Assembly (NCBI GenBank): GCA_045644725.1
Contig: JAZRHK010000136.1
Location: 1 to 62,744, forward strand
Length of the DNA: 62,744 bases
Origin: Candidatus Coprenecus sp.
GTDB taxonomy: Bacteria > Bacteroidota > Bacteroidia > Bacteroidales > UBA932
Reading direction: 5' to 3'
In this document: positions 9,391-57,956 of the stretch, one piece after another
Numbering within the stretch: position 1 is the first letter of the stretch
Layout of the letters: every line of letters begins with the position of its first letter
Notes under the pieces: generated by a model
Database searches by the model: none
Told to the model about the DNA's origin: nothing
The model's input: the letters and a program-made list of their open reading frames with translations, nothing else
Translations under genes and position numbers: made by a program

Positions 9391-9401
9391 AGTCAGGTAT
9401 T

Positions 9402-12625: not shown

Positions 12626-13189
12626 CTAAAATGTGTATACGATGGATATGTTGATATTGTTCGGCATCAGGAAAAGTTTCCGGGACTCTCCAACAAGTTT
12701 TCCGCATCGGGGGGAAATGTATGTTTTGTACTTTTTCCATCCGCCCCAGCCCCCAAGGCCGAACTCCATATTTATGCTTTTTGTCAGCATAAGGGAGTAG
12801 CCTGCCTGGATTCCAGCCCCGATAGCGTCACCTTCTTCTGTCAAGGGGCTCAGTATTCCTCCGTGGTTGTATCTTGAATATTGGATACCGAAGCTGTAAA
12901 ACCACCCGGAGTATACGTACCAGCTCCAATATCTCGCATTCAGTGAGCCTGTCAGCTGCTTGTTCTGGAAAGGTCGTGAAGATATGTTCCTGTCAATGGC
13001 ATTGTATCTCCCTTCCAGGTGAAGACTCCAGTGACGGTTGAGGCTCATCCCTATATTGATGTTAGGTGTGAGAAAATTGAGGTATCCTAAGGTGTTGGTC
13101 CCGATGGATACGCGGTTTTCGGCTCCGTGAAGGGTTGGGGTGGCGAAGACCAGTAGGAGGAAAATTAGGATAGTCTTTCTTGTCTGCAT
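12626..13189 (-). CDS. DUF3575-like outer-membrane beta-barrel protein
   Basis: ORF 13204 starts on TTG; the first ATG is at 13189 (MQTRKTIL...). Alternating aromatic and Gly strands, ending in ...ISIVYTF, typical of an OM beta-barrel. First gene of the pilus operon. Confidence 0.65.
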   Translation of the reverse strand: MQTRKTILIFLLLVFATPTLHGAENRVSIGTNTLGYLNFLTPNINIGMSLNRHWSLHLEGRYNAIDRNISSRPFQNKQLTGSLNARYWSWYVYSGWFYSFGIQYSRYNHGGILSPLTEEGDAIGAGIQAGYSLMLTKSINMEFGLGGWGGWKKYKTYISPRCGKLVGESRKLFLMPNNINISIVYTF

Positions 13190-42149: not shown

Positions 42150-42282
42150 AATTGTTTATTTTAGTTTATTGTTTTTCTTATCAGGCAAATTTAAGAAATA
42201 TATACTATAAATGCAATATGCCAAAATGTCATAAAATTCCTTGGCTTGCATTTTGAAGCAGAGGTGGCGGAGGAAATTTATT

Positions 42283-44415
42283 ATGAAACAGGAAAACAAA
42301 GAGATTTTGAACAAATTTGCCGTCAATCTCAATGACAGGGCAAAAGGGGGAAAACTTGACCCCGTAATCGGTAGAGATGAGGAGATTAGAAGGGTCCTCC
42401 AGATATTGAGCAGAAGGACTAAGAACAATCCGATCCTTGTCGGGGAGCCGGGTGTAGGCAAGACCGCAATATCCGAAGGCATTGCGCAGCGCATCATTAA
42501 TCAGGATGTCCCTGAGAACCTTAAATCAAAGGAGATATATTCATTGGATATGGGTGCCCTTATTGCTGGGGCAAAATATCAGGGGGAATTTGAAGAGAGA
42601 CTCAAAGGTGTAGTTAAAGCAGTAATAGAGAGTGAGGGTGAAATTATCCTTTTTATCGACGAGATCCATACCCTTGTAGGGGCAGGGCGTTCATCCGGCG
42701 CAATGGATGCCGCCAATATCCTCAAACCAGCCCTTGCCCGCGGCGAATTGAGGGCAATAGGTTCCACTACCCTGGATGAATACCGCAAGTATTTCGAAGA
42801 GGACAAGGCTCTTGAAAGGCGTTTCCAGATGGTACTGGTGGATGAACCCTCACCTGCCGAGTCCATTTCCATTCTAAGAGGACTCAAGGAGAAATATGAG
42901 AACCACCACAAGGTCCATATTGAGGATGATGCTATCATTGCGGCAGTGGAACTCTCGCACCGCTATATCACCAACAGATTTCTCCCGGACAAGGCTATTG
43001 ACCTTATAGATGAGGCTGCTTCAAAGCTCCGTCTGGAGATGAATTCTGTGCCGGAGTCCATCGATGAGCTCAGCCGCAAGATAAGGCAGCTGGAAATTGA
43101 GCGTGAAGCGATCAAACGGGAGGGGAAATCTCCAAAACTGGATGAAATCCAATCGGCTCTGAAGGGGCTTGAGAAGGAGTATGAGGCGGCCAACAAGAGG
43201 TGGAAAGAGGAGAAATCACTCCTCGAGCAGATACAGAAAAAGCGCGAGGATATGGAGCGGTACAAATACCAGGCGGAGGATGCCGAGAGGAGTGGGGATT
43301 ACGGTAAAGTGGCAGAGATACGCTATGGAAAGATGGCCGACGCCCAGAGAACAATAGATGAACTCACAGCCAGGAAGGATTCCAACCCGGATCCTCTTAT
43401 CAATGAGGCAGTCATTGCAGAGGATATTGCTGAGATCGTGTCACGCTGGACAGGTATCCCTGTAAACAGGATGCTGGAGAGTGAAAAGACAAAACTTCTC
43501 AATATGGAGTCTCTTCTCCATAAAAGGGTTGTGGGGCAGGATGAAGCAGTACAGGCAGTCTCTGATGCTGTCCGGAGGAGCAGGGCAGGACTTCAGAATG
43601 AGAAGAGACCCATAGGATCCTTTATGTTCCTCGGAACGACCGGTGTAGGAAAGACAGAGCTTGCCAAGGCTCTGGCGGAGGCCCTTTTCAATGATGAGAA
43701 TATGATGACCCGTATAGATATGTCGGAATACCAGGAGAGACACTCCGTATCGAGACTTGTGGGGGCCCCTCCGGGTTATGTGGGGTATGATGAGGGTGGC
43801 CAGCTTACTGAGGCTGTGAGGAGAAAACCCTATTCGGTAATCCTTCTTGACGAGATAGAGAAGGCCCATCCCGATGTCTTCAATGTCCTTCTCCAGGTAC
43901 TTGACGACGGACGCCTGACAGACAACAAAGGGAGGACTGTGGACTTCAAGAATACTATCCTTATTATGACATCAAATATAGGGTCGGATATTATCCAGCT
44001 CTATATGAACAAGATAGTGAATGGGGGAGACAAGGGTGCCCTGATGGATGAGTGCAAGAGGGATGTCCTCACTATCCTCAAGAAAAGTGTAAGGCCCGAG
44101 TTCATCAACCGCATAGACGAGATAATAATGTTCGAACCATTGACTATGGAGGCCATTCACGGTATACTTGATATACAGCTTCGAGAGGTGAAAAGCAAAC
44201 TTCTGGAGAATGGGGTGGAGATAAGTTTTACCAGGAATTTTATAGAATATTTGGCTGAAAAAGGGTTTGATCCTGCATATGGTGCAAGACCTATAAAGAG
44301 ACTTCTCCAGAGAGAACTTGTCAATAGACTGGCTACAGAGATGCTGAAAGGTGCTATCTCTAAAGAAGATAAGATCACTGTAGATATCCATGATGGAGAT
44401 TTAATCATAAAATAG
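42283..44415 (+). CDS. clpB: ClpB-type AAA+ disaggregase lacking the N-terminal domain
   Basis: ORF 42241 starts on TTG; the first ATG is at 42283, giving 710 aa. It begins at the linker just before NBD1 ([40 protein letters not shown]). The coiled-coil M-domain and NBD2 ([10 protein letters not shown]) are present. The upstream 133 nt is intergenic to a divergent gene. Confidence 0.85.
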
Positions 44416-46145: not shown

Positions 46146-47033
46146 ATGGGGAAGCTAAGTAAAACATATTGTGTGGCAGGACATCAGTTCTCTTTCGTTA
46201 TGGCGGAGACTTCGCCCCTGTGGAAATATGTTTTTCGTGCATACACCCCTTTTGAATCCATAGAATCCGAAGAGGACCTTTTTTCATTGGAGGTGACAGA
46301 TGTTCTGGAGGTTGTGGATCTGGAACAGATATATGTAGATGAAAATCCGGAACCCGGTTTTGTGAAAATAGCAGTCTACAGGTATCATGGCGGGTATTAC
46401 ATGGAGTTTACCCAGCATGACAGTGTTGAGGTCAATGGAAGAATGACTATGGATGGATATGGAAAGGTGAGACTCACCCTTATTGGTGACGAAATGAACC
46501 AATGGATGACCTTTACAAATATAGCTCAGGTAGTCTACTTTATGCGTACTGCTACATTGGAAACAGTGATGGCCCACGCCTCAGCTGTCCATTATCAGGG
46601 CAAATCATATCTGTTTTTAGGAAAGAGCGGTACAGGAAAAAGTACCCATAGCAGAATGTGGCTTCAAGGGGTAGAGGGATCTGAGCTTATGAACGATGAC
46701 CACCCTATAGTGAGGATTTCCGAGGATGGTACCCCTATTGCATATGGTTCGCCGTGGAGCGGGAAGACCCATTGCTATCACAATATGGCAGCACCCGTAG
46801 GTGCAATCGTGAGAATCCGCCAGGAAAAGGAGAATGCGATCCGCAAGCTCCGCCCTGTTGAGGCATATGGCTCTGTGATGGTCAGTTGCTCGGGATTCCC
46901 TATAGAAGAGAGAATCACAGAGGGGAAGAGCAATACACTTCAAAAGATAGTAAAAGGTACCTCCTGCTGGGAACTTGGCTGCCTGCCCAACGTGGATGCT
47001 GCCATTGTATGCAGGGATGCCGTTTGTCAGTAG
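46146..47033 (+). CDS. P-loop HPr-kinase-like (HprK C-terminal domain-like) protein
   Basis: 295 aa. HASAVHYQGKSYLFLGKSGTGKSTHSRMW resembles the HprK/lasso-kinase 'HA.AV...G.a.l..G.SGaGKST' core, followed by NDDHP. Starts 1 nt after the transporter stop. Confidence 0.55.
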   Translation: MGKLSKTYCVAGHQFSFVMAETSPLWKYVFRAYTPFESIESEEDLFSLEVTDVLEVVDLEQIYVDENPEPGFVKIAVYRYHGGYYMEFTQHDSVEVNGRMTMDGYGKVRLTLIGDEMNQWMTFTNIAQVVYFMRTATLETVMAHASAVHYQGKSYLFLGKSGTGKSTHSRMWLQGVEGSELMNDDHPIVRISEDGTPIAYGSPWSGKTHCYHNMAAPVGAIVRIRQEKENAIRKLRPVEAYGSVMVSCSGFPIEERITEGKSNTLQKIVKGTSCWELGCLPNVDAAIVCRDAVCQ

Positions 47034-47036
47034 CTT

Positions 47037-47492
47037 ATGGGAGAGAAACTTACTATACCGAATTCCATTTTTTTTGCTGAGGTGGAGAGCCACATATCGG
47101 GGGGGAGGAGTGTGGTAATTCCTGTGAAAGGTTACAGCATGCTCCCTTTCATCCGGGATGGCAGGGACAGTGTAGAGCTTGTAGGATGCAAGGAATTGAA
47201 AGTGGGAGATATTGCTTTGGCCAAATTGGGCAATGGCAATTTTGTGCTCCACAGAGTGTGGGAGACAGATGGTGGGAAAGTGGTTCTTATGGGAGATGGC
47301 AATATCGCAGGAAAGGAGGTTTGCAGACACTCTGATATAATTGGTGTAGCCTCCAGGATTTTTAGAGGCAAGAGGGTGATAGACTGCACCTCTGCCGCTT
47401 ATTTGAGAAATGTTAAAATATGGAGGGGGCTCCTCCCTATAAGAAGATATATTCTGGCGGTTTACCGCCGTTTAATAAAATTAGGGCTATGA
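47037..47492 (+). CDS. soluble S24/S26-type serine peptidase-like protein
   Basis: 151 aa. VKGYSMLPFIRDGRDSVELV matches the G-x-S-M-x-P nucleophile motif. No N-terminal TM or signal peptide. 3-nt gap from the kinase-like gene and 4-nt overlap with the next gene. Confidence 0.55.
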   Translation: MGEKLTIPNSIFFAEVESHISGGRSVVIPVKGYSMLPFIRDGRDSVELVGCKELKVGDIALAKLGNGNFVLHRVWETDGGKVVLMGDGNIAGKEVCRHSDIIGVASRIFRGKRVIDCTSAAYLRNVKIWRGLLPIRRYILAVYRRLIKLGL

Positions 47493-47755
47493 GGATTAAA
47501 AAAGGTTTCAAATTAAGGGAAATTATGGGCGAATTTGCCGTTATAGGTGAAGGGCTTGAGCAGGTCAATTTCAATAAGATAATATCTCTCAACAGCACAG
47601 CTGCATACATATGGAGAGAGATCGAGGGGAAGGACTTTGATGCAGAGATGGTGGCAGAGCTGCTTCTTGACAAGTACGAAGTGAGTCGTGAGACAGCATT
47701 GTCAGATGCTACAGTGCTGGTGCGCAAATTGGTGGAAAACGGATTGACCGAATAG
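47489..47755 (+). CDS. PqqD-family protein (RiPP recognition element-like)
   Basis: ATG at 47489 within ORF 47420..47755, giving 88 aa. ...LNSTAAYIWREIEGKDFDAEMVAELLLDKYEVSRETALSDATVLVRKLVENGL is the classic PqqD pattern. Confidence 0.7.
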   Translation: MRIKKGFKLREIMGEFAVIGEGLEQVNFNKIISLNSTAAYIWREIEGKDFDAEMVAELLLDKYEVSRETALSDATVLVRKLVENGLTE

Positions 47756-47760
47756 GCAAA

Positions 47761-49401
47761 ATGGTAATAAAGAGGATTATAAAGATTCTTCCGAAGGAGT
47801 TTTACCGGACGGGTGGCTGGATAGTGGCTTCGGTTCCGGTAAGGGCCCTTTTGAATCTTGTGGGTGTGGCAGCCCTCCTTCCGGTGCTTCAGGTGGTGCT
47901 GGATGATAATCCTACCCGTTTCAGCCCTGTGACCGTATGTTTGGGAGTTCTGGCGGTCATTCTTCTCAAGAATATCCTCAATATTGCCCTGGGGGCATAT
48001 CAGAACAGGTTCCTCCTCAAGATATACAGATACTTTTCCACTGCACTTTTCTCTAATCTGTATCACAAGGGCCTTCTGTATATAAAAGGGCGCAACTCTG
48101 CTGAGATCTCGCACGAGATCAACGGGGTATGCTACTCTTTCTCATTGGGTGTGCTGTCTCCAATTCTGAACATGGCAGGTGAGAGCCTTTTGCTCCTGCT
48201 GATATATATTGGTCTCATTTTCTACTCCCCTGTTGCTTCAGTGCTTGTCCCTGTATGCTTTATTCCGGTGATACTCCTCTATGTCCATATGGTAAAAAAC
48301 AGGGTGCAGAGTTATGGGAAAAAGGAGAATGAGGCGAGAAGGAAGATGTGGAAAACTGTAGTGGAGACCTTCCGGGGTTATGCAGAAGTGGAGGTAAACG
48401 GTGCATTTCCGTCGATTGAAAAGCAATTTGATGAAAATTTGCAGGATATATCGCTGCAACGTGAGAAGATGACTGTAGTCCAGCAGCTCCCAATTACTCT
48501 GATAGAGCTCTCTGTGGTAGGGGCTATGGTTATACTGGTGCTTCTTAGCGGAGCTTTGGAGGGGGACAACCTGAGTGTCATGGTGGGTGTATTTGCCATT
48601 GCTGCCATGAGAATTCTCCCTGCAGTGAGGACTTTGACAAACGGGTGGACATCGGTGAAAAATGGGATGTACAGCCTGGATATCATAGAGCAGGGCCTCT
48701 CTGAAGAGGGCGTGGACAAGAAGATGGATGAACAGTTCAGTTTCTCCTGTGGACTTGAGGTAAGAAATCTGTCTTTTGCATTCCCGGATGGAGAACATAA
48801 GGTATTTGATGATTTCTCTATGTATGTGAGAAAAGGGGAGAAAGTGGGAATCAGAGGCCATTCCGGTGCCGGCAAGACCACCCTTTTCAATTTACTGCTG
48901 GGGTTTTACAGACCGGACAAAGGTGGCATCTATATTGACGGCAAAGAACTGACAGTGGAAAATCGTGCAGGATGGCTCAAATATGCAGGATATGTACAGC
49001 AGGATGTATTTATTCTTGATGCTTCATTGGCTGAGAATATTGCACTTGGTGTAAAAAGCGAGTTGATAGACAGGAACAGGGTCATGAGGGTGATCAAGGA
49101 GGTATCTCTTGCATCTTATCTGGAACAGCTTCCAGATGGTATCGATACTAGAATAGGTGAGATGGGGGCAAAGCTCTCCGGTGGACAGAAGCAGCGTGTA
49201 GGTATTGCCAGAGCACTTTATAAAGGGGCAGATATTTTATTCTTTGACGAGGCTACATCATCACTGGATAGTGCTACAGAGTCAGAAATCAACGAATCTA
49301 TAATGGAACTCTCCTCCCATAGAAAAGACCTGACTATTATTGCAATAGCTCACAGGGAGTCTTCTTTGGCTTTCTGTGACAGGATTATAGAGATTTTCTA
49401 G
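47761..49401 (+). CDS. ABC exporter, fused permease/ATPase (no C39 peptidase domain)
   Basis: 546 aa. Six-TM N-terminal half. Walker A GHSGAGKTT, signature LSGGQKQRVGIARA and Walker B ILFFDEATSSLD. Confidence 0.9.
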   Translation: MVIKRIIKILPKEFYRTGGWIVASVPVRALLNLVGVAALLPVLQVVLDDNPTRFSPVTVCLGVLAVILLKNILNIALGAYQNRFLLKIYRYFSTALFSNLYHKGLLYIKGRNSAEISHEINGVCYSFSLGVLSPILNMAGESLLLLLIYIGLIFYSPVASVLVPVCFIPVILLYVHMVKNRVQSYGKKENEARRKMWKTVVETFRGYAEVEVNGAFPSIEKQFDENLQDISLQREKMTVVQQLPITLIELSVVGAMVILVLLSGALEGDNLSVMVGVFAIAAMRILPAVRTLTNGWTSVKNGMYSLDIIEQGLSEEGVDKKMDEQFSFSCGLEVRNLSFAFPDGEHKVFDDFSMYVRKGEKVGIRGHSGAGKTTLFNLLLGFYRPDKGGIYIDGKELTVENRAGWLKYAGYVQQDVFILDASLAENIALGVKSELIDRNRVMRVIKEVSLASYLEQLPDGIDTRIGEMGAKLSGGQKQRVGIARALYKGADILFFDEATSSLDSATESEINESIMELSSHRKDLTIIAIAHRESSLAFCDRIIEIF

Positions 49402-49410
49402 AACTTGGGA

Positions 49411-49441
49411 TTTGTTTCTTGCTGGAAAATGTTTATATTTG
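49411..49441 (+). promoter_or_regulatory. Bacteroidetes promoter (TTTG -33, 19-nt spacer, TAtaTTTG -7) for the small ORF / lipoprotein pair
   Basis: TTTG at 49411-49414 and TATATTTG at 49434-49441, 30 nt upstream of the ATG at 49471. Confidence 0.5.
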
Positions 49442-49470
49442 CATTAATTTGAATGTAGATAGGAATTATT

Positions 49471-49602
49471 ATGTCAGAGAAAATGAAATCCCCATACATC
49501 TCTCCTGAAATGGAGATTATCGATCTTGTAACAGAATCAGGCTTTTGCTCAAGCAATCCAGGTGGAAATACTCCTGGTCTGGACAATAATACATGGAATT
49601 GA
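49471..49602 (+). CDS. unannotated 43-codon ORF, leader-peptide-like (family member 1)
   Basis: Hand translation gives MSEKMKSPYISPEMEIIDLVTESGFCSSNPGGNTPGLDNNTWN*. It is below the ORF-track size cut-off. It has its own promoter and is homologous at protein level to the small ORFs at 55073-55189 and 56979-57098. An alternative start is ATG at 49483. Confidence 0.55.
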   Translation: MSEKMKSPYISPEMEIIDLVTESGFCSSNPGGNTPGLDNNTWN

Positions 49603-49619
49603 CAAAAGGAGGATGTGAT

Positions 49620-51497
49620 ATGAAAATAGGGGTTAAACTCACTTTTTTTGCGGTATTCTTTTTTGTTATTCACTCATGTGCCAGTTTAGAGAATACATGT
49701 GGTGAGAATATGGGGCTGTATCCTGCGGAGATAGGGGTAAGCATGTCATCCGGTGATAAGACCAAAGTGTATCTTGGTGATTCTGACAATGACAGCAATA
49801 CAACCCCTATATATTGGAGCGACGATGAAAGTGATCAGATTAAAGTAAAGGTTGATGGTGTGGACTACATTTTTCAAAAGGTAGGAAATACATCCAATTC
49901 AAAAAATGCAAAGTTCAGATGCGAATTGGCACCGGCGGTAGAGGCTGGAAAGACCTATACAGCCACATATAGCAGTGACGGGTTCAATTCAATCGGGTAT
50001 TACCAAAGTGGAACTATAAGCTCTCTTAAGGATCATATTGATCTTTCAGCAACATATACAGCTAAGGAGGGTGATACATGGAATGATGTGGTATTCAATT
50101 TTCAGATGGAGCGTGCTATAGTGAAAATCACCATAAGAAGTGATATTGTGAATGATGTTGGAGTTGGTGTTGATCTTATGGAGGATGGAAAGGGCCTTGT
50201 CACCTCCACCAGTACTGTTGAACTCTCTCAGGAAGGTGTTGCCGAGTTCTACTTTGTCTTGGAACCCAGAGAGTACAATGAAATTACCATGGAGGTTACT
50301 TTGTATATATGTGGAGATCCTCTAAATTTCCAAACCAGGGTGATTAGATATGAGATGAGTGATATCACTATTAGGAGGAACAATATGTACTATGTAGAGA
50401 AGCAGCTTCTGTCAGATACGAGTATAGAGGAAAATTTTAATATCGTCAAGCTCTCAGGAGAGGACAACAGTTCTACTGCAAATTCATATATATTGAATCC
50501 TGTAACCGACAATCCCGTACTTGGTAAAGATAACACTATCTACAGAATATACGCCAAATACAAAGGGAACAGCTCTTCCGTATCTGATGAGATCGGTTCA
50601 CGTATCAAAAAGGTAAAAGTGTTGTGGGAGTCAGATGGAACAAATTCACCTCTTGCTCAAGGGGCAATTATAACCCGTGCGATATGGCATAATGACTTCA
50701 TCTACTTTGACATTAATGGATCAGGTGCTGAAGGAAATGCACTTATAGGTGCATTTGATGGTGATGGCAATATAGTGTGGTCATGGCATATCTGGGTTAC
50801 AGATACCCCTCAAGAGCATCAATATGAAGATAATGACGGTATAGTCTTCGGTACTTATATGGACAGGAACTTGGGTGCATTAAGAGCTGATGGTACCGCA
50901 GTGGAAAATAGTGGCCTTTTCTATCAGTGGGGGAGAAAAGATCCGTTCCTTCCCGGTAATGTCTCATGCGCAATGATGGAAGGCGCTTCATGGAATAAAG
51001 TGAGAGTGGATAACGCCACCGGATCAATAGCTTATGCAACAGAGCACCCTATGACTTATTTGTACAGTACAGCATCTCCATTCACCTGGATTTATCTCTC
51101 TGCAGGAGAATCTGTGCAAAGTTCTATGTGGGGGGCATCCAAGACTGTATACGACCCTTGCCCCTACGGATGGAAAGTGACAGAAAGTAATCTTGGAAAC
51201 AATATAGATGTCTCTTCCGGTAGGGGTTCATTCAATTCCACAACAGGCAATTATGAACTCAAGTACAAAAAAGATAAGGGAGATGTGGCATATTTCCCAA
51301 CTTCAGGGCGATATTCGTATTCTACAGGTGAATGGATACAGGCTGGACTGGCCGGTTTCTATTGGTCTTCAACAGTTTCCCGTGACAGCGAGATAAGACC
51401 TGCATGCAGTTTCTATTTTGATGATCAGGGTAACGTGAATCCTGCGAGAACATATTTCTTCGCGGAAGGTGCTTCCGTAAGGTGTAAAAAAATGTAG
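49620..51497 (+). CDS. surface lipoprotein with fimbrillin-like N-terminal part and C-terminal FISUMP-like (Fibrobacter succinogenes major paralogous) domain
   Basis: ATG at 49620 (MKIGVKLTFFAVFFFVIHSC, lipobox). C-terminal motifs MDRNLGA, LFYQWGRKDPF, DPCPYGWKV, GFYWSST and GASVRCKK. Confidence 0.55.
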   Translation: MKIGVKLTFFAVFFFVIHSCASLENTCGENMGLYPAEIGVSMSSGDKTKVYLGDSDNDSNTTPIYWSDDESDQIKVKVDGVDYIFQKVGNTSNSKNAKFRCELAPAVEAGKTYTATYSSDGFNSIGYYQSGTISSLKDHIDLSATYTAKEGDTWNDVVFNFQMERAIVKITIRSDIVNDVGVGVDLMEDGKGLVTSTSTVELSQEGVAEFYFVLEPREYNEITMEVTLYICGDPLNFQTRVIRYEMSDITIRRNNMYYVEKQLLSDTSIEENFNIVKLSGEDNSSTANSYILNPVTDNPVLGKDNTIYRIYAKYKGNSSSVSDEIGSRIKKVKVLWESDGTNSPLAQGAIITRAIWHNDFIYFDINGSGAEGNALIGAFDGDGNIVWSWHIWVTDTPQEHQYEDNDGIVFGTYMDRNLGALRADGTAVENSGLFYQWGRKDPFLPGNVSCAMMEGASWNKVRVDNATGSIAYATEHPMTYLYSTASPFTWIYLSAGESVQSSMWGASKTVYDPCPYGWKVTESNLGNNIDVSSGRGSFNSTTGNYELKYKKDKGDVAYFPTSGRYSYSTGEWIQAGLAGFYWSSTVSRDSEIRPACSFYFDDQGNVNPARTYFFAEGASVRCKKM

Positions 51498-51504
51498 GGC
51501 CAGA

Positions 51505-51978
51505 TTATATCGGGTAGATCTCTGCCCCAGTGAAGTCAAACAGGTCTTGGGGGGATATCCTTAACTGGAGCCCTCTGAGACCTGCGCTTATATAGATGTG
51601 GTCATACAGGAGGGCAGATTCGTGGATGAAGGTGGGATAAGGCTTCTTCATCCCGATAGGGGTGCACCCTCCACGGATGTATCCGGTGTTTGGAAGGAGC
51701 TCTTTCATCGGAATCAGGTCGCAGTTCTTGTTACCTGATATTTTGGCAGCCACCTTCAGGTCTACCTCAAAGTTCCCTGGGATGACACACACGAAGAGCC
51801 CATTTTTGTCTCCACGCAGGACAAGGGTCTTGAAAACCTGTTCTATGTTCTGACCAAGTTGTTCTGCGACATGATCTGCCGCAAGATTCGATTCATCCAC
51901 TTCATATGGGATAAGTTCGTATGTTATCCCCGCTTTGTCCAGAAGGCGGGCAGCATTGGTCTTCTCTATTTTTCCCAT
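51505..51978 (-). CDS. ybaK: Cys-tRNA(Pro)/Cys-tRNA(Cys) deacylase YbaK
   Basis: 157 aa. KTNAARLLDKAGI.YE...Y, FKTLV and GGCTPIG motifs. Confidence 0.85.
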   Translation of the reverse strand: MGKIEKTNAARLLDKAGITYELIPYEVDESNLAADHVAEQLGQNIEQVFKTLVLRGDKNGLFVCVIPGNFEVDLKVAAKISGNKNCDLIPMKELLPNTGYIRGGCTPIGMKKPYPTFIHESALLYDHIYISAGLRGLQLRISPQDLFDFTGAEIYPI

Positions 51979-52952
51979 TTGTCGAGTGCCTCCTTCATGA
52001 GTTCCCTCCCTTTTTTTGCTATCTCTTTGGCTCTTGAATAGTCGGATATCTCCCCATATGCGTCGAATGGCATACGGACCAGAACATCAGGATTATATTT
52101 GGAGATAGTAATTTCACTTATTGTATGGTTCATAAGACTGAATGTCCTGTCCAGAAGTGAATAGTAGTTGTCTCCTAAAGAGAAGTCAGTGGAACTGTCT
52201 TTGGATATGCTCTCAGAAATGACCTTTTTACCATATATTCCTGCGAGTTTTACCCTTTCACCAAACGTTAGTGTTTCATTGTTTTTGATTGAGTCCAGAA
52301 GTTTTCTATTCTCAAGTTGTCTCTCTTTCTCGAGAATCATCTTCTCCTGTTCATCTCTATGTCTTTGGACTATGGCAGCCTGCATCTCTGTAACATTGAC
52401 ATCGTTTACATCAAATGCCACTAGAATGTCCTTCCCGTTTCTTACCACTCTATTGATAGGTAGTGAGTTCACTATTCCACCATCAACCAAGGTTCTTAGC
52501 CCTTGTTTGACTGGCCTGAACAGGGATGGAATGGATATTGAGGCGCGGATTGCATCAAAAAGATTCCCCTCAGAGTAGACTATCTCCTCTCCTGTATACA
52601 GATCGGCAGCTACCGCCCTGAATGGTATTTTCAGATCCCGGATATCTATATCTGGTATTATCTCTTTAATTGCATTGATAATCTTGTCTCCTTTTACAAT
52701 GTGGTTTTTGCTTAGGGACAGATCCATTAATCCGAAAACTTTCCATGCGTTGAGGTTGTAAAGCCACTCCTTGAGCTCATCAAGTCTCCCTGTGGCATAA
52801 ATGCCGCCTATCAGTGAGCCCATAGATGTTCCTGCTACTGATGTTATATTGTAACCTCTCCTTTCGAGTTCTTCGATCGCTCCGATATATGCAAATCCTC
52901 TGGGGCCGCCGCTTGAGAGCACTAATGCTACATCTTGTCTGATAGGTTTCAT
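51966..52952 (-). CDS. patatin-like phospholipase
   Basis: 328 aa. Oxyanion SSGGPRG, nucleophile GTSMGS and DGG Asp motif. Confidence 0.8.
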   Translation of the reverse strand: MKPIRQDVALVLSSGGPRGFAYIGAIEELERRGYNITSVAGTSMGSLIGGIYATGRLDELKEWLYNLNAWKVFGLMDLSLSKNHIVKGDKIINAIKEIIPDIDIRDLKIPFRAVAADLYTGEEIVYSEGNLFDAIRASISIPSLFRPVKQGLRTLVDGGIVNSLPINRVVRNGKDILVAFDVNDVNVTEMQAAIVQRHRDEQEKMILEKERQLENRKLLDSIKNNETLTFGERVKLAGIYGKKVISESISKDSSTDFSLGDNYYSLLDRTFSLMNHTISEITISKYNPDVLVRMPFDAYGEISDYSRAKEIAKKGRELMKEALDKWEK

Positions 52953-52989
52953 AGTGAAATGTATTTACTCAACAAAGATAATAATTTTC

Positions 52990-52997
52990 TAACTTTG
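52990..52997 (+). promoter_or_regulatory. Bacteroidetes -7 box (TAacTTTG)
   Basis: Exact TAnnTTTG match 27 nt upstream of the ATG at 53024. Confidence 0.4.
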
Positions 52998-53023
52998 TTT
53001 CGAAAATCAATTATTTCGCACTT

Positions 53024-54031
53024 ATGGAGATACTCAAGAGGTTATTCAGGAAATATGTTGTAGACGCATTGAGCTATATGGCCCTGGGTCTGTTCTGCTC
53101 ATTGATATTGGGCCTAATAGTGGGGCAGTTGGCGAAAATGGAGTTTCTGGGCTTTCTGGGCTTTATTGCGGAGGCTCTCTCTGCAAGTTCTCCTCTGGTG
53201 GGTGCCTGCATAGGCTTTGCAATAGTGCTGGGGCTGAAGTATGCCCCCCTTGTGACCATATCTTCAGCGATAGTAGGTGCACTCGGTTATAAATATGGCG
53301 GCCCTGTTGGCTCATACTTTGCAGTGATAATAGCAGCGAGGGTGGGTGAACTTATCTCCAAAAAGACCCCTGTAGATATCATCCTTACCCCACTGGTCAC
53401 TATTGTAGTGGGTGGACTTATTGCCAGATATTGCTGCTCTCCGATCAATGATTTTATGCTCTATCTGGGGAGCCTCATCAACAATGCCACAAATCTCAGC
53501 CCATTCTTGATGGGGATTGTGGTCTCTATCCTGGTGGGTTGTGCACTTACCCTCCCAATCAGTTCTGCAGCCCTCTGCATTATGCTCGGGATAGATGGCC
53601 TTGCTGCCGGTGCTGCCACAGTAGGGTGCTGTGCCCAGATGGTGGGATTTGCCGTGATAAGTTTCAGGGACAATGGGGTAGGAGGGCTCCTTTCTCAGGG
53701 GCTCGGAACCTCAATGCTGCAGATAGGCAATATTGTTCGCAAACCAATAATATGGCTTGCACCGACCCTCACTGCTGCCATCCTTGGACCCGTTTCCACA
53801 GTGGTGTTCGGGATGACCAACAATGCCCTCGGTGCTGGTATGGGTACCTCCGGCCTTGTAGGGTCTATTGCGTCCTATGCCGATATGACTGCAGCTGGAG
53901 GCGATTCTACCGCCATAATAATAAAAATAGCGGTGCTACATTTCGTAGCACCGGCTATCATTTCTCTTTTCATCCATTTGGGAATGACCAGACTCGGCTG
54001 GGTCAAAAATGGTGATATGAAGATAGGGTAG
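53024..54031 (+). CDS. polytopic membrane protein, PTS EIIC-like (PTS_EIIC_2 type)
   Basis: 335 aa, Gly/Ala-rich, with about 9-10 TM segments. The assignment is from overall resemblance only. Confidence 0.4.
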   Translation: MEILKRLFRKYVVDALSYMALGLFCSLILGLIVGQLAKMEFLGFLGFIAEALSASSPLVGACIGFAIVLGLKYAPLVTISSAIVGALGYKYGGPVGSYFAVIIAARVGELISKKTPVDIILTPLVTIVVGGLIARYCCSPINDFMLYLGSLINNATNLSPFLMGIVVSILVGCALTLPISSAALCIMLGIDGLAAGAATVGCCAQMVGFAVISFRDNGVGGLLSQGLGTSMLQIGNIVRKPIIWLAPTLTAAILGPVSTVVFGMTNNALGAGMGTSGLVGSIASYADMTAAGGDSTAIIIKIAVLHFVAPAIISLFIHLGMTRLGWVKNGDMKIG

Positions 54032-54037
54032 TGGGGG

Positions 54038-55042
54038 TTAAATATGTGAATCACTCTCTGTTACAGTCCATCCTGTACTAGGCAGTCTGTATGCTTTGCC
54101 CACAACTATGTTTTTATCTGTAACAGGTACAAGCAATTCGTATTTGTAATATTTTGAGGATGATTTGTATCTTACGTGGAATGCCCAACTTGAAGTTGGT
54201 TTTTTAATCATAAGTTCATTTTTGAAAGCAAAACAATAGGAAATGTCCTCCCCATTGACCACACATCCGGCATCGCCTGTAGCAGTACTCCTGTCAAAAA
54301 CAAATCCATGTGTCTCAGTAGGATTGAATGATAATGCATCTTTTTTAAGTGCGACCACTGCCCAATTCGCTTCAGTGGTGCTGTTCACAATGGATATAGT
54401 TGACTCTTCCATATATGCTTCATCGTGGCCTGAGGGCATACCAGTCAACTCTCTTGGAACAGAGATCTGGAAAAGTCTTGGATCAATATTAAGAGTCACA
54501 GAACCGAGAGAGACAACGCCATCAGTAACTGTATATGTGCCGGTACCTTTCATAAATTCACCTCCGTTATAATTAAGTAGTGGATATGTACCTTCTTTCT
54601 CAAACCAGTTGCCAACATTGTTTGTACCTTTTATAAAGTAAGTTTCGTCCTTCGTGCCATGAGTAAGCATTTCTCCTCTGTGGTGTATGGCCATCCACTC
54701 ACCACCTTCCCCTAAGTTAGATGTAATTGTATTATTGAGCACAATCTCAGACCATCCTGTTATAGATGAATAGACGGTGTAAGCAGCTTTTATGTATGGA
54801 GTTCCACCTAAAGTTCCTCCGTACCAATTTGCTCCAGTTGGTTTGAATACAAACACCACCCAATCCCCATTGGCCCATTCGGATTTTACAGCTTTAGTGA
54901 GATTCCCGCTGAAATCTGGTCTGTCTGATATTGTAAATACAGCTTTTGTACCCTCATTCTCCATTGGGGAGTCAATCTTTTGGCACCCTGATGCAGTTAC
55001 CACCAATGCGATAACTGCCATAATAAGATTTCTCATTTTCAT
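54038..55042 (-). CDS. fimbrillin-like lipoprotein, paralog A (downstream of small ORF 2)
   Basis: 334 aa. Lipobox VVTASGC. ...TKAVKSEWANGDWVVFVF... N-terminal pattern. Clear paralog of 55982..56947. Confidence 0.55.
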   Translation of the reverse strand: MKMRNLIMAVIALVVTASGCQKIDSPMENEGTKAVFTISDRPDFSGNLTKAVKSEWANGDWVVFVFKPTGANWYGGTLGGTPYIKAAYTVYSSITGWSEIVLNNTITSNLGEGGEWMAIHHRGEMLTHGTKDETYFIKGTNNVGNWFEKEGTYPLLNYNGGEFMKGTGTYTVTDGVVSLGSVTLNIDPRLFQISVPRELTGMPSGHDEAYMEESTISIVNSTTEANWAVVALKKDALSFNPTETHGFVFDRSTATGDAGCVVNGEDISYCFAFKNELMIKKPTSSWAFHVRYKSSSKYYKYELLVPVTDKNIVVGKAYRLPSTGWTVTESDSHI

Positions 55043-55072
55043 AATTGTCCTTTTTATCAGTTATACATTTGG

Positions 55073-55189
55073 TTACCATTGTTCTTCTCCATCAAATCCG
55101 TCATAATTTGGTGATGCGGCAAAACCCTGTTCCACCGACATTTCGACTACCTCCAGCAGAGGAGCTTCGTAAAGTTTCAGTTTTTCCAT
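55073..55189 (-). CDS. unannotated 38-codon ORF, leader-peptide-like (family member 2)
   Basis: Hand translation gives MEKLKLYEAPLLEVVEMSVEQGFAASPNYDGFDGEEQW*. It ends 30 nt upstream of the lipoprotein ATG at 55042. Confidence 0.55.
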   Translation of the reverse strand: MEKLKLYEAPLLEVVEMSVEQGFAASPNYDGFDGEEQW

Positions 55190-55232
55190 AGGCTTATATT
55201 TTATGTTTGTATGTAACTACTGACTTTTTTTT

Positions 55233-55264
55233 CAAATATACCTTTTTTTTGGTTAATCGTCAAA
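55233..55264 (-). promoter_or_regulatory. Bacteroidetes promoter on minus strand (TTTG, 20-nt spacer, TAtaTTTG) for small ORF 2 / lipoprotein A
   Basis: Plus-strand CAAATATA at 55233-55240 and CAAA at 55261-55264. The -7 box lies 44 nt upstream of the ATG at 55189. Confidence 0.5.
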
Positions 55265-55312
55265 CAAGTACGAATTTTGAAGTGCATTATTGAAATATTT
55301 CAGAAAAAATAT

Positions 55313-55320
55313 TATATTTG
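55313..55320 (+). promoter_or_regulatory. Bacteroidetes -7 box (TAtaTTTG) upstream of ferritin
   Basis: Exact TAnnTTTG match 38 nt upstream of the ATG at 55358. Confidence 0.45.
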
Positions 55321-55357
55321 CGATAGGAAATAATTATAAATAAAGAATAAACAAATT

Positions 55358-55876
55358 ATGATCAGCGAAAAACTACACAAAGCAATCAATGACCAGATCA
55401 ATGCAGAACTTTGGTCAGCATATTTGTATCTCTCAATGTCTATGGACGCTGAGGAGAAGAACTATAAAGGAGTGGCCAACTGGTTCCATATCCAGTTCCA
55501 GGAGGAGCAGGCTCACGCACGTATCTTCATGAACTACCTTAACTCAGTAGAGGCTAAAGTGGAACTCAAACCTATTGAGGGAGTTCAGACTACCTGGGAT
55601 TCAGTTTTGGATATGTTCAAATCTACCCTTGAGCACGAGAAGAAAGTATCTGCACTTATCCGTAACCTTATGAGCATAGCTAAAGAGGATCATGACTACG
55701 CAGCAGAGAGCAAACTCAAATGGTTCATCGAGGAGCAGGTGGAAGAGGAAGAGGCTGCAAGGGATATCATCTTCGCTGTAGAGTCAGTCGGTAACAGCAA
55801 AAATGATATGTATATCCTTGATAAGGAGTTGGCAGCACGTGTATACAATGTGCCTGCCCCACTAGCTGGCAAGTAG
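55358..55876 (+). CDS. ftnA: non-heme ferritin
   Basis: 172 aa. ...INAELWSAYLYLSM...WF..Q..EE..HA..F..Y ferroxidase-centre pattern. Confidence 0.9.
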   Translation: MISEKLHKAINDQINAELWSAYLYLSMSMDAEEKNYKGVANWFHIQFQEEQAHARIFMNYLNSVEAKVELKPIEGVQTTWDSVLDMFKSTLEHEKKVSALIRNLMSIAKEDHDYAAESKLKWFIEEQVEEEEAARDIIFAVESVGNSKNDMYILDKELAARVYNVPAPLAGK

Positions 55877-55921
55877 CCTTTTAAAGGGTGATTTCTGCGT
55901 TACGCTCGATTCGGAAATATA

Positions 55922-55955
55922 AGGGAGACTAATCTGTTTAAGAATTAGTCTCCCT
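55922..55955. terminator. bidirectional terminator hairpin between ferritin (+) and lipoprotein B (-)
   Basis: 12-bp perfect stem AGGGAGACTAAT / ATTAGTCTCCCT with T-rich flanks on both strands. Confidence 0.6.
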
Positions 55956-55981
55956 CTTTCTTCAAAAATAAGCCGTCTTAT

Positions 55982-56947
55982 TTATTTGGTCCATCCAGTG
56001 AGTGGTAGTCGATATGATTTTCCAATTTTGATAGAATGGTCATTTCTGTCAATGTTGATTGATGCGAAACTTGCAGCATTTTCTCCATTTGTAATTGAGA
56101 ATACTAAATCTGTAAATGTTGCATCTTCTGGTTTGCTGAATACAAAGCAGTAAGACACATCTTCACCGTTTAATACCCCCTCAGCAAAACCAGATTTTGT
56201 TGAATTGTCAAGCCAAAAGCCATTGGTGGTTTGTGGAGCCAAATAAAGCACCCCTCTTTTAAGGGCCACAACTCTATATAGATCTTCCGGTGATGAATTT
56301 TGTTTTATGGATAATCTAAATTTCAGGTTTTTGAACCAGGTAGAATATGCGTTATTAAATATAGGGTTGCTACTCCCATCTGTAATGTCTTTGCTCACTG
56401 AAAATTGGAATAAAGAACTATACAGCTGTAAGTCTATTGTGGATAGTGTAATTGTAGTACCGTCCGATGTGTAAGTTCCTTTATGGGACATAAATTCTCC
56501 TCCTTTATATCCATCAAGCTGGTATCCGTTATAGGTGTTAGGTGCAGTACCTACTTCAGAGGGAATAGCTTTAGCTGTTACCTTCCCTCTATGGTGGATG
56601 GCCAGATAAGTGCCACTTTCGCCCAAGTCAGTTATATTTTGAGAAGTGAGAGTTATATCTGACCACACAGATGATGTATAGGTTGTCGTGAATTTATAAA
56701 GGGCATCTTCCATAGGCCCATACCAATTTGTAGCCCCTGCAGGTTTGAAAATTATCATGACCGAATCCCCCTCTGCCCAAGCTGTTTTGACCGCTTTTGT
56801 CTGGCCTGGGTCGCCAAGTACAGGTTTGTCTGCGATGGTGAATTTTACTTTTACTGTGCTATTTGAGTCGGCTCTGTCGATTTTTTGACATCCTGAAGCA
56901 GTTATAACCAATGCGATAACTGCCATAATGATATTTCTAAATTTCAT
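55982..56947 (-). CDS. fimbrillin-like lipoprotein, paralog B (downstream of small ORF 3)
   Basis: 321 aa. Lipobox VITASGC. TKAVKTAWAEGDSVMIIF. Collinear with paralog A through to the C-terminal ...YRLP.TGWT. Confidence 0.55.
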   Translation of the reverse strand: MKFRNIIMAVIALVITASGCQKIDRADSNSTVKVKFTIADKPVLGDPGQTKAVKTAWAEGDSVMIIFKPAGATNWYGPMEDALYKFTTTYTSSVWSDITLTSQNITDLGESGTYLAIHHRGKVTAKAIPSEVGTAPNTYNGYQLDGYKGGEFMSHKGTYTSDGTTITLSTIDLQLYSSLFQFSVSKDITDGSSNPIFNNAYSTWFKNLKFRLSIKQNSSPEDLYRVVALKRGVLYLAPQTTNGFWLDNSTKSGFAEGVLNGEDVSYCFVFSKPEDATFTDLVFSITNGENAASFASINIDRNDHSIKIGKSYRLPLTGWTK

Positions 56948-56978
56948 AATTGTCCTTTTTTATCAGTTATACATTTGG

Positions 56979-57098
56979 TTACCATTGTTCTTCCCCTTCA
57001 AATCCGTCATAATTTGGCGATGCGGCAAAACCCTGTTCCACCGACATTTCGACTACCTCTAGCAGAGGAGCTTCGTAGAATTGATTTTCCTTCTTCAT
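56979..57098 (-). CDS. unannotated 39-codon ORF, leader-peptide-like (family member 3)
   Basis: Hand translation gives MKKENQFYEAPLLEVVEMSVEQGFAASPNYDGFEGEEQW*. It ends 31 nt upstream of the lipoprotein ATG at 56947. Confidence 0.55.
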   Translation of the reverse strand: MKKENQFYEAPLLEVVEMSVEQGFAASPNYDGFEGEEQW

Positions 57099-57148
57099 AG
57101 TGTTGGCTTTTAAATGTTTGTTTGCAATTTACCTAAAATTTTCCTTGG

Positions 57149-57880
57149 ATGCAAACAAAGTACTATCTTAGAGCAAATTTTGAACTTATGGCACTATTCA
57201 GATTGAGTGAGAAATGTGTTAAGCCAATGGTATTTTCTGCTACCGGGCTTTTTATCGCATTGGTCGCAATTTTCTTTTTGCCATTGGCATTGCCCTATGA
57301 ACTGGCATACCCTGTGGCTGCCCTTTTCGTAGTATCGCTATGGCTGACACCGTGGGAAGTCTCATTGGCATTGCTCTTCTCAGCAATGGGGGATGTGGCA
57401 GGGAGTGCCGGAGAGATTCTTTGGCAGATGGGGCTTTTCGGAGTGGCGCATCTGTGGTACATCCTCTTTTTCGTGAGAAGATATTTTGCAAAAGTTGATA
57501 AAAGGGATGGGAAGGTGAGCAGAAGGACGGTGGTCCATCTGAGCATATTCTCCCTCTGCGTCCTGGCAGTAATGGCTGTGGCGTTTGCGCTTGTGGTACC
57601 GGCAATGCCTGCTGGTGTGGTGAGAATTGCTGGAGGTGCCTATGCAGTGGTGATATGTGGAATGTTCCTGATGGCATTGCTCCAGAGGAGTTCGCTGTAT
57701 GCATTGGGCGCTGCCCTGTTTGTGATATCGGACCTTGTTCTGGCATGGAACCTTTTTGTGGAGCCAGTGGAGAATGCAGGTGCAATGATAATGGTGACCT
57801 ATTATCTGGCACAATGGCTCATTTTCATCCGTGCCACTCCGTATGAGGTGCCCCATCCGGTACGGCTGTTGAGGTTTTGA
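57149..57880 (+). CDS. YhhN-like (lysoplasmalogenase family) membrane protein
   Basis: 243 aa, about 7 TM, with the FSAMGDVAG motif. The true start may be a downstream Met (57188 or 57227). Confidence 0.45.
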   Translation: MQTKYYLRANFELMALFRLSEKCVKPMVFSATGLFIALVAIFFLPLALPYELAYPVAALFVVSLWLTPWEVSLALLFSAMGDVAGSAGEILWQMGLFGVAHLWYILFFVRRYFAKVDKRDGKVSRRTVVHLSIFSLCVLAVMAVAFALVVPAMPAGVVRIAGGAYAVVICGMFLMALLQRSSLYALGAALFVISDLVLAWNLFVEPVENAGAMIMVTYYLAQWLIFIRATPYEVPHPVRLLRF

Positions 57881-57899
57881 TGGGATGTGCTGCTTCGGC

Positions 57900-57956
57900 G
57901 GCCAGGTCTGCAAAAATGTGCTAGACCTGGCCGGATGTGATGGCCGGCCCTTTTTT
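57900..57956 (+). terminator. terminator region: 10-bp perfect hairpin plus GC hairpin and T-run
   Basis: GGCCAGGTCT (57900-57909) / AGACCTGGCC (57923-57932), then GCCGG...CCGGC followed by TTTTTT at 57951-57956. Confidence 0.6.

Follow-up and report, generated by a model that had tools for sequence, protein, structure and literature searches.

Among the systems described so far, the pathways for phosphorylated and glycosylated lasso peptides such as paeninodin and pseudomycoidin, with their genes A, B1, B2, C, D, K and N, come nearest to the one discussed here. It is found in a contig of 62,744 nucleotides (nt) from the Bacteroidales bacterium Candidatus Coprenecus sp. (JAZRHK010000136.1, assembly GCA_045644725.1; this whole stretch is called the window below), which carries three two-gene modules, each consisting of a small open reading frame (ORF) for a precursor-like peptide (P1, P2 and P3) and the gene of a predicted surface lipoprotein behind it, as well as an operon directly upstream of P1. 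In lasso clusters, an HPr-kinase homologue phosphorylates a serine (Ser) of the precursor and a nucleotidyltransferase adds a hexose to the phosphate (PMC8498205). Common to those pathways and to the system described here are a leader with the element Y-x-x-P-x-L, a stand-alone PqqD-type recognition element (RRE) of the kind used for peptides that are ribosomally synthesised and modified after translation (RiPPs), a protein with the fold of phosphoenolpyruvate carboxykinase (PEPCK) and HPr kinase, an NTP_transf_5 nucleotidyltransferase in most lineages, and an ATP-binding cassette (ABC) exporter without a peptidase domain (PMC8498205). Two other components are missing by comparison. No asparagine-synthetase-like cyclase (C) was found among the identified operon genes of the window and of the related loci L044, L078, L085-L087 and L100-L117, and no transglutaminase-like cysteine protease (B2) was identified, with an S26 Ser-His peptidase-like protein occupying its position. 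Moreover, when the core is counted from A25 of the precursor, P2 and P3 have an aspartate at position 7, and P1, P0028, P0026 and P0046 have no acidic residue at positions 7-9. A true lasso peptide was therefore rejected, as the loci examined show neither a cyclase nor B2, and a regular Asp or Glu at core positions 7-9 is missing. The precursors also differ from lasso precursors in being scattered through the genome, each before a lipoprotein gene. Our proposal, for which we see a little more than an even chance, is that these peptides, produced along with surface lipoproteins, are leader-guided substrates of a lasso-like machinery that has no cyclase.

Several other described systems resemble parts of this one. 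The partner lipoproteins share an Mfa_like_1-type N-terminal region and a fold match to BF2867 and BF1861 with type V pilins, the Mfa- and Fim-like fimbrillin lipoproteins. This likeness is one of sequence and predicted fold, and in contrast to type V pilins many of the partners here have adhesin-like C-terminal domains; we know of no small leader-peptide gene in the described type V pilus operons. The precursors processed by peptidase-containing ABC transporters at double-glycine sites are similar in that a conserved, acidic and amphipathic N-terminal leader sits on a short variable cargo, that several precursors are served by one exporter, and that cleavage is presumably coupled to ABC export. 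However, there is no GG, GA or GS site here (Q-G-F-A-x-S is found instead) and no C39 domain, and the peptidase, of S26-like type, is separate and accompanied by an RRE. In Bacillus subtilis, the tapA-sipW-tasA operon includes a dedicated signal peptidase of the endoplasmic reticulum type for surface fibre proteins. Likewise, a Ser-His S26 peptidase of the Sec11/SipW type would be devoted here to a surface-structure system. Unlike SipW, the S26-like protein here is without a membrane anchor, and it probably acts on a cytoplasmic peptide lacking a signal sequence rather than on a fibre protein. Finally, the SynChlorMet cassette, with ScmC and the PqqD-like ScmD, and the related HprK-related-kinase and PqqD sets of TIGRFAMs and NCBIfam share with this operon the pairing of a ScmC-type P-loop protein and a PqqD-family protein. 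The operon here differs in having no radical S-adenosylmethionine (SAM) partners and in matching the NCBIfam ScmD model weakly (E 6e-4); to our knowledge, the substrates and functions of SynChlorMet-type cassettes are themselves not known. The preliminary description, which had been made from the window sequence, knew of no described pairing of such a leader peptide with pilin-like lipoproteins, and a literature search on this pairing, on the peptide family and on the substrate of the operon likewise gave none; the search was incomplete and prior work is possible. There is a substantial chance that the partnership with a lipoprotein is something categorically new.

The three small ORFs and their partners on the same strand are present where the preliminary description had placed them, with gaps of 17, 30 and 31 nt, and each partner (start codons at 49620, 55042 and 56947) has a signal peptide and a lipobox cysteine (Table 1). 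Between the peptides of P2 and P3 the identity is 87%, whereas P1, with the same motif, reaches 28-34%; no further copies were found in the window. A homologue of P1, P0005, is 79% identical to it. Orthologues of P1 lie upstream of a 644-residue lipoprotein gene in each of the two loci L019 and L020, and a peptide identical to P3 is present in L019, L020, L091 and L092. A word-indexed profile search gave 48 small proteins, and in an exhaustive HMMER search of 1.84 billion representatives the family amounts to 2,608 representative proteins (E<=1e-3). Neither Pfam nor NCBIfam has a model for it. One member matches lasso_cyano at E 0.16, and weak matches of a few members to two unrelated Pfam families were taken as spurious.

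From 255 collected sequences, the anatomy of the peptide is evident. The conserved N-terminal part comprises 27 residues with the motif Y-x-x-P-x-hydrophobic-E...E-Q-G-F-A-x-S, in which Y8, P11, E21 and F24 are invariant, G23 is glycine in all but one sequence (254/255), E14 and E17 hardly vary, position 13 holds V, L, I or M in 250 sequences and position 25 is alanine in 248. Position 27 is Ser in 247 peptides and Thr in the other 8, and never Ala or Gly, which suggests that a hydroxyl group is needed there. The tail behind it has a median of 15 residues, among which G, E, D, N and P are frequent; it carries a negative net charge in 98% of the peptides and is almost free of cysteine. Near its end, 81% of the peptides have W, F or Y in one of the final four positions, and 37% end in W. 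From the conserved segment to the stop codon there are 5-28 residues. No hydrophobic signal sequence was found in the peptides. Tails are conserved within module lineages, for example PNYDGFEGEEQW against NWNGFDNEEQW for modules whose partners are only 34% identical.

Could such short ORFs be chance occurrences or annotation noise in conserved 5' untranslated regions? They are absent from Pfam and NCBIfam and uncalled in some NCBI annotations, and a DNA island of about 180 bp shared by the P2 and P3 modules could suggest conservation at the DNA level. The codons say otherwise. Among 75 distinct leader segments of 20 codons, the pairwise differences at codon positions 1, 2 and 3 are 0.30, 0.17 and 0.63, the invariant Ser27 is written with both TCN and AGY codons, and all four codons are used for invariant Gly and Pro. 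The segments were gathered with an amino-acid pattern, of which the synonymous spread is independent. This combination of codon-position pattern and free synonymous codon use implies that it is the protein, rather than an RNA or DNA element, that is under selection; together with the single motif shared by 2,608 clusters, it effectively refutes the noise explanation and leaves its probability close to nil. The small ORF is almost certainly a real gene in a conserved module. Intact peptide ORFs that the NCBI annotation of contigs from metagenome-assembled genomes (MAGs) does not call occur at positions 3841-3969 of L088 and 2276-2395 of L092, and the family is likely under-annotated in general.

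The preliminary description had taken peptide and lipoprotein to be functionally linked, and the conservation of their adjacency supports this. Five peptide clusters located in public assemblies all lie 2-62 nt 5' of a lipoprotein gene, and the other genes around them are housekeeping genes without relation to them. When one genome of each GTDB species was scanned, 66 loci were returned (L019-L084), of which 65 were confirmed; L063 (Nitrospirae) is a false match within a radical SAM gene. The confirmed loci are mostly labelled as Bacteroidales MAGs, many of them named for samples from ruminant or other herbivore guts, and the carriers include Alistipes and other Rikenellaceae, Ca. Egerieisoma, Ca. 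Coprenecus, Bacteroidaceae, Prevotellaceae and Odoribacter, as well as two Flavobacteriales MAGs. A lipobox gene follows within 176 nt (median 21 nt) for 69 of the 71 peptide ORFs in these loci, against a chance expectation of about 2% taken from the density of lipoprotein starts in a different set, the operon loci treated below. In most modules the gap is between -10 and 62 nt, and in one it is 176 nt; the two ORFs without a lipoprotein gene behind them are that of L054, which is truncated, and an orphan in L079. The reverse question, whether homologues of the lipoproteins are preceded by such a small ORF, had also been raised. Starting from three homologues of the P3 partner, five of five loci carry an upstream peptide, divergent forms included, and two of these ORFs are not called by NCBI annotation. 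Adjacency is thus conserved in both directions and over many Bacteroidales lineages. Several MAGs hold three or more modules on different contigs, and tandem modules occur in L024, L025, L055 and L090.

Typical modules are also found in L024, L030 and L057 on contigs labelled Faecalimonas, Faecalibacterium and Lachnospira, respectively. As most other matches come from Bacteroidota, these probably reflect binning contamination and not presence in Firmicutes. In L054 (9983-10063), a 26-residue peptide stops precisely with Ser27 of the motif. Behind it come a hairpin and the gene of a 428-residue P-loop protein with a GKT motif, and operon genes lie within about 3-7 kb to either side; this may be a decayed module or a natural form without a tail.

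With respect to expression, promoters of the Bacteroidetes type are indeed present directly 5' of P1 and P2, and no such box lies inside the spacers between peptide and lipoprotein, as had been stated before. P3 has only an imperfect -7 box, TAAATTGC. The pattern TTTG-N18-21-TAnnTTTG occurs at five sites in the window against 1.0 expected, a number that none of 100 shuffled sequences reached, and two of the five are those of P1 and P2. The promoter motif precedes 25% of the modules, compared with 5.9% in the background and 5% inside or after the ORF. Folding of the junction between peptide and lipoprotein gene gave no significant RNA structure (z-scores -0.22 and +0.22). Short gaps, a promoter motif that is enriched only 5' of the peptide and a junction without significant RNA structure point, at the level of sequence, to co-expression of peptide and lipoprotein from one transcript; an RNA attenuator at the junction was rejected on the same short gaps and z-scores.

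These data also bear on the view that the ORF acts in cis only, its translation setting the level of the lipoprotein through coupling or ribosome arrest while the peptide has no later function. The constant position directly 5', the very short or overlapping gaps and the enrichment of the promoter motif upstream of the peptide alone are all what such an upstream ORF would show. What it does not account for is the strong conservation of amino acids with free synonymous change, and a conserved segment that ends 5-28 residues from the stop codon is ill-suited to an arrest peptide. The missing RNA structure at the junction speaks against it too, and such a role would give no reason for the association with a PqqD operon or for the lasso-type motif. 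We consider a purely cis-acting role very unlikely. Of the options listed in the preliminary description (ligand, cargo, chaperoned partner or regulatory upstream ORF), the last has therefore lost ground, and the choice among the others is as it was.

The lipoproteins themselves are varied. The 69 partner genes at the genome loci encode 265-1181 residues, and a lipobox cysteine is found in all of them and in the three partners in the window. At positions +2 to +7 after the cysteine, at least one acidic residue is present in 69 of 69 and at least two in 56. The lipoprotein export signal has been defined experimentally as C-X-K-(D/E)2, or SDDDD in Bacteroides fragilis (PMC5080379), and from the resemblance of the acidic motif to this signal the partners are probably surface-exposed. 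The C-terminal regions differ from partner to partner (LRR_5, PCMD, DUF4465, a GLUG motif, or nothing recognisable). By contrast, similarity in the N-terminal region links 77 of 85 partners in BLAST comparisons. The sole recurrent Pfam family is Mfa_like_1, which is found in 16 of 52 partner homologues (best E 9.8e-18). The window partners do not match the Pfam model of Mfa_like_1, and those of P2 and P3 are linked by BLAST to homologues that do. The P2 and P3 partners are paralogues, as had been noted before (334 and 321 residues, 40% identical, E 1e-64), and the P2 partner is homologous to the N-terminal 315 residues of LRR_5 lipoproteins in L001 and L002.

An AlphaFold model of the P3 partner was obtained from an alignment of 20 sequences (pLDDT 75.6, pTM 0.75). 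Its top matches in the PDB are 4h40 (BF2867, annotated as a putative cell adhesion protein) and 3sy6 (BF1861, a fimbrial protein), both from B. fragilis, with Foldseek E-values of 1.7e-6 and 3.5e-6 and a probability of 1.0. The global TM score is only 0.31-0.36. With strong Foldseek E-values and a low global TM score, the model supports a two-domain pilin fold to a moderate degree, and the earlier label fimbrillin-like is upheld at that strength by the model and by the Mfa_like_1 matches of partner homologues. The C-terminal FISUMP-like domain that had been assigned to the P1 partner fared less uniformly. Family profiles do not recover it (Fib_succ_major, PF09603/TIGR02145; no Pfam match at E<=10 and no NCBIfam match at E<=0.01). 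In a direct BLASTP comparison, a genuine PF09603 protein encoded in L090 is matched at E 1e-5 over 222 residues with 27% identity, and the motifs YQWGRK, DPCPxGW, YWS and SVRC, to which the preliminary description had pointed, are aligned between the two.

The second part of the system is the operon upstream of P1, whose last gene ends 70 nt before the start codon of P1. Its first protein has a precomputed Pfam assignment to PF27840 (ScmC), as have its homologues; a local copy of Pfam gives none. A search of the PDB with the single sequence was uninformative, and a profile search gave P-loop matches only. The AlphaFold model (pLDDT 93.3) is closest in Foldseek to PEP carboxykinases (E 2e-7) and to HPr kinase (1knx, E 3.5e-5), and the P-loop, GxSGTGKST, is invariant. 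In the S26-like protein, the boxes GxSMxP, HR and GD are kept, with G32, S34, M35, P37, H72, R73, G86 and D87 invariant among seven homologues. Profile matches include Staphylococcus aureus SpsB (E 1.2e-4) and human SEC11C (E 9e-3). The match to the NCBIfam model sigpep_I_arch (E 4e-8) lies below the family cut-off, as does the Pfam score, and a single-sequence search of the PDB was uninformative. No membrane anchor was found in it (maximum Kyte-Doolittle hydropathy, KD(19), 0.81). The PqqD protein also matches weakly the NCBIfam models of the lasso PqqD chaperone (E 5e-5) and, far below cut-off, of ScmD. Hydropathy indicates that the peptidase-like, kinase-like and PqqD proteins are all soluble, from which processing at the cytoplasmic face, before ABC export, would follow. 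The ABC exporter has its membrane domain from residue 41 on and matches the PglK, MsbA and type I secretion ABC families of NCBIfam; a C39 peptidase domain was not found on it.

Table 1. Positions of the peptide modules, their promoters and the upstream operon in the window
Feature	Position	Strand	Evidence or remark
ScmC-like P-loop protein, 295 residues, PEPCK/HPr-kinase fold, candidate peptide kinase	46146-47033	+	
Small soluble S26 (Sec11/SipW-type) peptidase-like protein, 151 residues, candidate leader peptidase	47037-47492	+	
PqqD-family RiPP recognition element	47489-47755	+	Pfam PqqD, E 1.7e-14
ABC exporter, MsbA/PglK-like half-transporter	47761-49401	+	Pfam ABC_membrane, ABC_tran
Bacteroidetes-type promoter motif TTTG-N19-TATATTTG upstream of P1	49411-49441	+	
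P1 precursor peptide, 43 residues	49471-49602	+	ESGFCSS variant of the family
P1 partner, 625-residue lipoprotein with distant FISUMP-like C-terminal domain	49620-51497	+	Lipobox IHSC
P2 partner, 334-residue fimbrillin-like predicted surface lipoprotein	54038-55042	-	Lipobox ASGC|QKID
P2 precursor peptide, 38 residues	55073-55189	-	ORF listing, sequence reading
Promoter motif TTTG-N20-TATATTTG upstream of P2	55233-55264	-	
P3 partner, 321-residue fimbrillin-like predicted surface lipoprotein	55982-56947	-	AlphaFold and Foldseek
P3 precursor peptide, 39 residues	56979-57098	-	ORF listing, sequence reading

The link between the peptides and this operon is positional. In L019 and L020, two loci closely related to the window, a module has the genes of all four operon proteins within 10 kb, and at the same distance from a module the four-gene set is found at 35-46% identity in L044 (Prevotellaceae), L054, L069 and L078 (Rikenellaceae), where the NTP_transf_5 nucleotidyltransferase is present as well. 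The order in L044 is PqqD, NTP_transf_5, ABC exporter, peptide, lipoprotein, ScmC, S26, with the module inside the operon. These six loci represent five independent lineages, compared with about 0.5 of 66 loci expected on our estimate of one operon per genome of about 3 Mb, that is a chance below 1% for any module to lie within 10 kb of it. The preliminary description had called the leader PqqD-recognisable, and it gains from both this proximity and the spacing of the Y-x-x-P-x-L element, which is that of lasso leaders.

The typical operon, as seen in L085-L087, consists of ScmC, S26, PqqD, NTP_transf_5 and the ABC exporter, and a metagenome scan that added 80 operon loci to these three gave 83 operon-centred loci. 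Clustering of small intergenic ORFs revealed a sister peptide family, for example MKKMNKMYEAPKAEVIEV... and MKKMNKMYEAPKAEVIE..., at five loci (L100, L102, L103, L108 and L117; in L103 at 12849-12986). It keeps the YxxPxxE-hydrophobic-hydrophobic-E start and is without the EQGFA box. Its genes stand directly after those of ScmC, S26, PqqD and NTP_transf_5 and are followed by a lipoprotein gene of 325-333 residues; the stretch searched at these loci gave no homologue of the ABC gene. A loose version of the leader motif, applied to 894 kb of operon loci, picked out nine small ORFs, eight of them followed by a lipoprotein gene where chance would give about 1.8%, whereas a control on reversed sequence gave two ORFs, neither followed by one. 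From these two results, the order of operon, leader peptide and lipoprotein found in the window recurs with different peptides and different lipoproteins.

Genes beside the operon differ between lineages. In L103, a gene on the opposite strand directly upstream of the operon (8267-9934, minus strand) is Lnt-like, with LNT_N and CN_hydrolase domains, and a gene in the same position occurs in L100, L108 and L117; the domains were checked in L103. An Lnt-like gene is notable there, given that the system is tied to lipoproteins, but the four loci may represent a single lineage. In some lineages, polysaccharide genes are neighbours of the operon. In L085 and L086 (14956-20469), it lies beside genes with NusG/KOW (weak), Glycos_transf_4, Poly_export and Wzz domains, and in L044 (3881-6741) beside genes for a GT4 glycosyltransferase, a 2-hydroxyacid dehydrogenase and an HpcH-type aldolase. 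A role of the operon in glycan-linked chemistry is possible.

How would such a system work? Taken together, it is quite likely that the set of PqqD, S26, kinase-like and ABC proteins acts on the peptides as its substrates. The conserved part of the peptide would be a leader that sends it in trans to one shared machine per genome, which in the window would be the genes directly upstream of P1. The Y-x-x-P-x-L element is a lasso-leader motif bound by PqqD-type RREs, and since the spacing is the same, residues 8-13 (YxxPxL) may be what PqqD binds here. The soluble Sec11/SipW-type S26 peptidase would cut at G-F-A-x-S, at either A25 or S27, as G23-F24-A25-x-S27 offers small residues at -3 and -1. 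The PEPCK/HPr-kinase-fold protein would modify a hydroxyl group, most likely that at position 27 and perhaps by phosphorylation, and the NTP_transf_5 enzyme, in the majority of other lineages where it is present, may add to this modification. The ABC exporter would then carry the product across the inner membrane into the periplasm, where, or at the cell surface, it would work in concert with the co-expressed lipoprotein. The variable tail is favoured as the exported part, in analogy to all other leader-guided systems. Candidate tail products are PNYDGFEGEEQW and AASPNYDGFEGEEQW, and the corresponding leader fragments would be residues 1-25 or 1-27. That an exported tail acts with the lipoprotein is doubtful when taken as a claim of its own.

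The opposite assignment has also to be considered, namely that the 27 conserved residues form the active product, followed by a variable tail that is disposable. In that case, S26 would cut after Ser27, the C-terminal Ser would be phosphorylated, and glycosylated where NTP_transf_5 is present, and a uniform, modified peptide would be exported. A position 27 that accepts only Ser or Thr agrees with this, as do the small residues A25 and S27 at -3 and -1 of an S26 site and an N-terminal part that is about 65% identical between modules with unrelated partners. The HPr-kinase homologues of lasso clusters act on a C-terminal Ser, as in paeninodin and pseudomycoidin (PMC8498205), and the 26-residue peptide of L054 is a natural case that ends at Ser27 beside the operon. 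The L054 locus, however, looks like a decayed module, and we dropped it as proof that Ser27 is the C-terminus, regarding it as an anecdote. Known leader-guided systems discard the conserved recognition part and keep the variable part as the product. The tails, with their shared negative charge, the aromatic residue near the end and their conservation within lineages, do not look like a disposable stretch, and a Pro follows Ser27 in 10% of the peptides. We regard this assignment as improbable.

Returning to the tail as the exported part of a leader-guided substrate, several observations weigh against our proposal or restrict it. The first concern the operon. That of the window is without NTP_transf_5. 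Up to a distance of 10 kb from the operon, none of the 83 operon-centred loci has a peptide with the strict EQGFA motif, and only 8 have a looser leader-like module. The operon family, counted by homologues of the ScmC-like protein, comprises more than 7,500 clusters at 90% identity compared with 2,608 for the peptide at 50% identity, levels which differ. Because few operon loci have the peptide and the operon family looks more numerous, the operon may have other substrates or another main role. The second concern the cleavage site. The Pro after Ser27, found in P2 and P3 among others, is unfavourable to a classical signal-peptidase cut at that bond, which renders the site uncertain and favours the A25 bond or an atypical specificity. 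The third concern the partners. Identical peptides, tail included, are paired with lipoproteins that are only 38-40% identical, so the tail cannot recognise the variable body of its partner, and the tails are glycine-rich and acidic, unlike donor strands. Any interaction between peptide and lipoprotein must therefore use the conserved pilin-like base or a common pathway and not the adhesin part. The conserved face of the lipoprotein carries TKAVKTAW-x-GD, AIHHRG and Y-x-GGE. As candidate roles, the peptide could serve the pilin fold as a pro-peptide acting in trans or as a groove plug, help in assembly or in surface export, or be a stoichiometric modified ligand. In its strongest form, the proposal would describe a two-part Bacteroidales system hitherto undescribed, in which one machine processes and exports many acidic peptides, each a required cofactor of its lipoprotein and possibly phospho-modified; we rate this form as an unlikely but serious possibility.

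The evolution of the modules is informative with regard to the relation between peptide and partner. An island of about 180 bp, 92-97% identical between the P2 and P3 modules (window positions 54971-55171 and 56880-57080), begins at about codon 8 of the peptide and extends over the spacer into the first codons of the signal peptide, and the DNA on either side is 30-55% identical. This suggests gene conversion, or a shared 5' block that serves as a recombination anchor. L091, a syntenic relative of window positions 51501-57938, has one module where the window has two, the P2 module of the window being inserted additionally between the genes of ferritin and PTS-EIIC. In L091, the identity to the window is 95-97% in the flanks and over the first 61 codons of the lipoprotein gene, and the peptide is identical, whereas the body of the lipoprotein cannot be aligned at the DNA level and is 38% identical as protein. 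From the two comparisons, the lipoprotein body appears to be a fast-changing cassette behind a conserved 5' block. A correlation between tail similarity and partner similarity shows co-inheritance only.

This exchange bears as well on an explanation in more familiar terms, that the peptide is an ordinary secreted RiPP, a bacteriocin-like signal or toxin, with the lipoprotein as its immunity protein, receptor or export accessory. Leader peptide, RRE, peptidase and ABC exporter are a typical RiPP toolkit, and many precursors per machine have a precedent, as in other RiPP classes numerous precursors of a genome are served by one machine. Yet between close relatives the lipoprotein body is swapped and the peptide stays unchanged, and the partners are large, diverse and adhesin-like on a pilin-like base, unlike small immunity proteins. 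Furthermore, the tails are almost without cysteine, uniformly acidic and of no obvious antimicrobial character, and an inner-membrane ABC exporter alone would not suffice for release from a diderm cell. We find this explanation improbable, too.

Should the peptides be leader-guided substrates made with surface lipoproteins, lasso-type leader recognition would extend to a system without a cyclase; in the strongest form of the proposal, a new class of linear leader-guided peptides would be joined to a new step in the biogenesis of surface lipoproteins or pili in Bacteroidota. One would then expect peptide masses with and without phosphate, cleavage within G-F-A-x-S, binding to PqqD that depends on Y8 and P11, and lipoprotein phenotypes in start-codon mutants of the peptide. 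Pilin- and adhesin-like surface lipoproteins are prominent where gut Bacteroidales meet the host, phage and other microbes, and the transport of lipoproteins to the surface of Bacteroidota is still unsettled; at least 2,600 clusters of small proteins are now tied, with hardly an exception, to such genes. The peptide family also provides a concrete candidate substrate for a widespread set of PqqD, kinase and nucleotidyltransferase genes.

Two minor observations concern the window. A perfect 13-nt inverted repeat (56907-56919 and 57252-57264) flanks the promoter and peptide of P3, and ..IALV.. is encoded by either arm as part of a hydrophobic segment, which belongs to the signal peptide of the lipoprotein in one case and to YhhN in the other. 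An invertible promoter was considered and rejected, as there is a single 13-nt repeat at P3 and nothing comparable at P1 or P2, and the repeat is probably a coincidence. Further upstream, an ORF on the plus strand (42241-44415) matches only positions 150-852 of the ClpB model, and stop codons occur in all three frames ahead of it; it is either a ClpB without its N-domain or a truncated gene.

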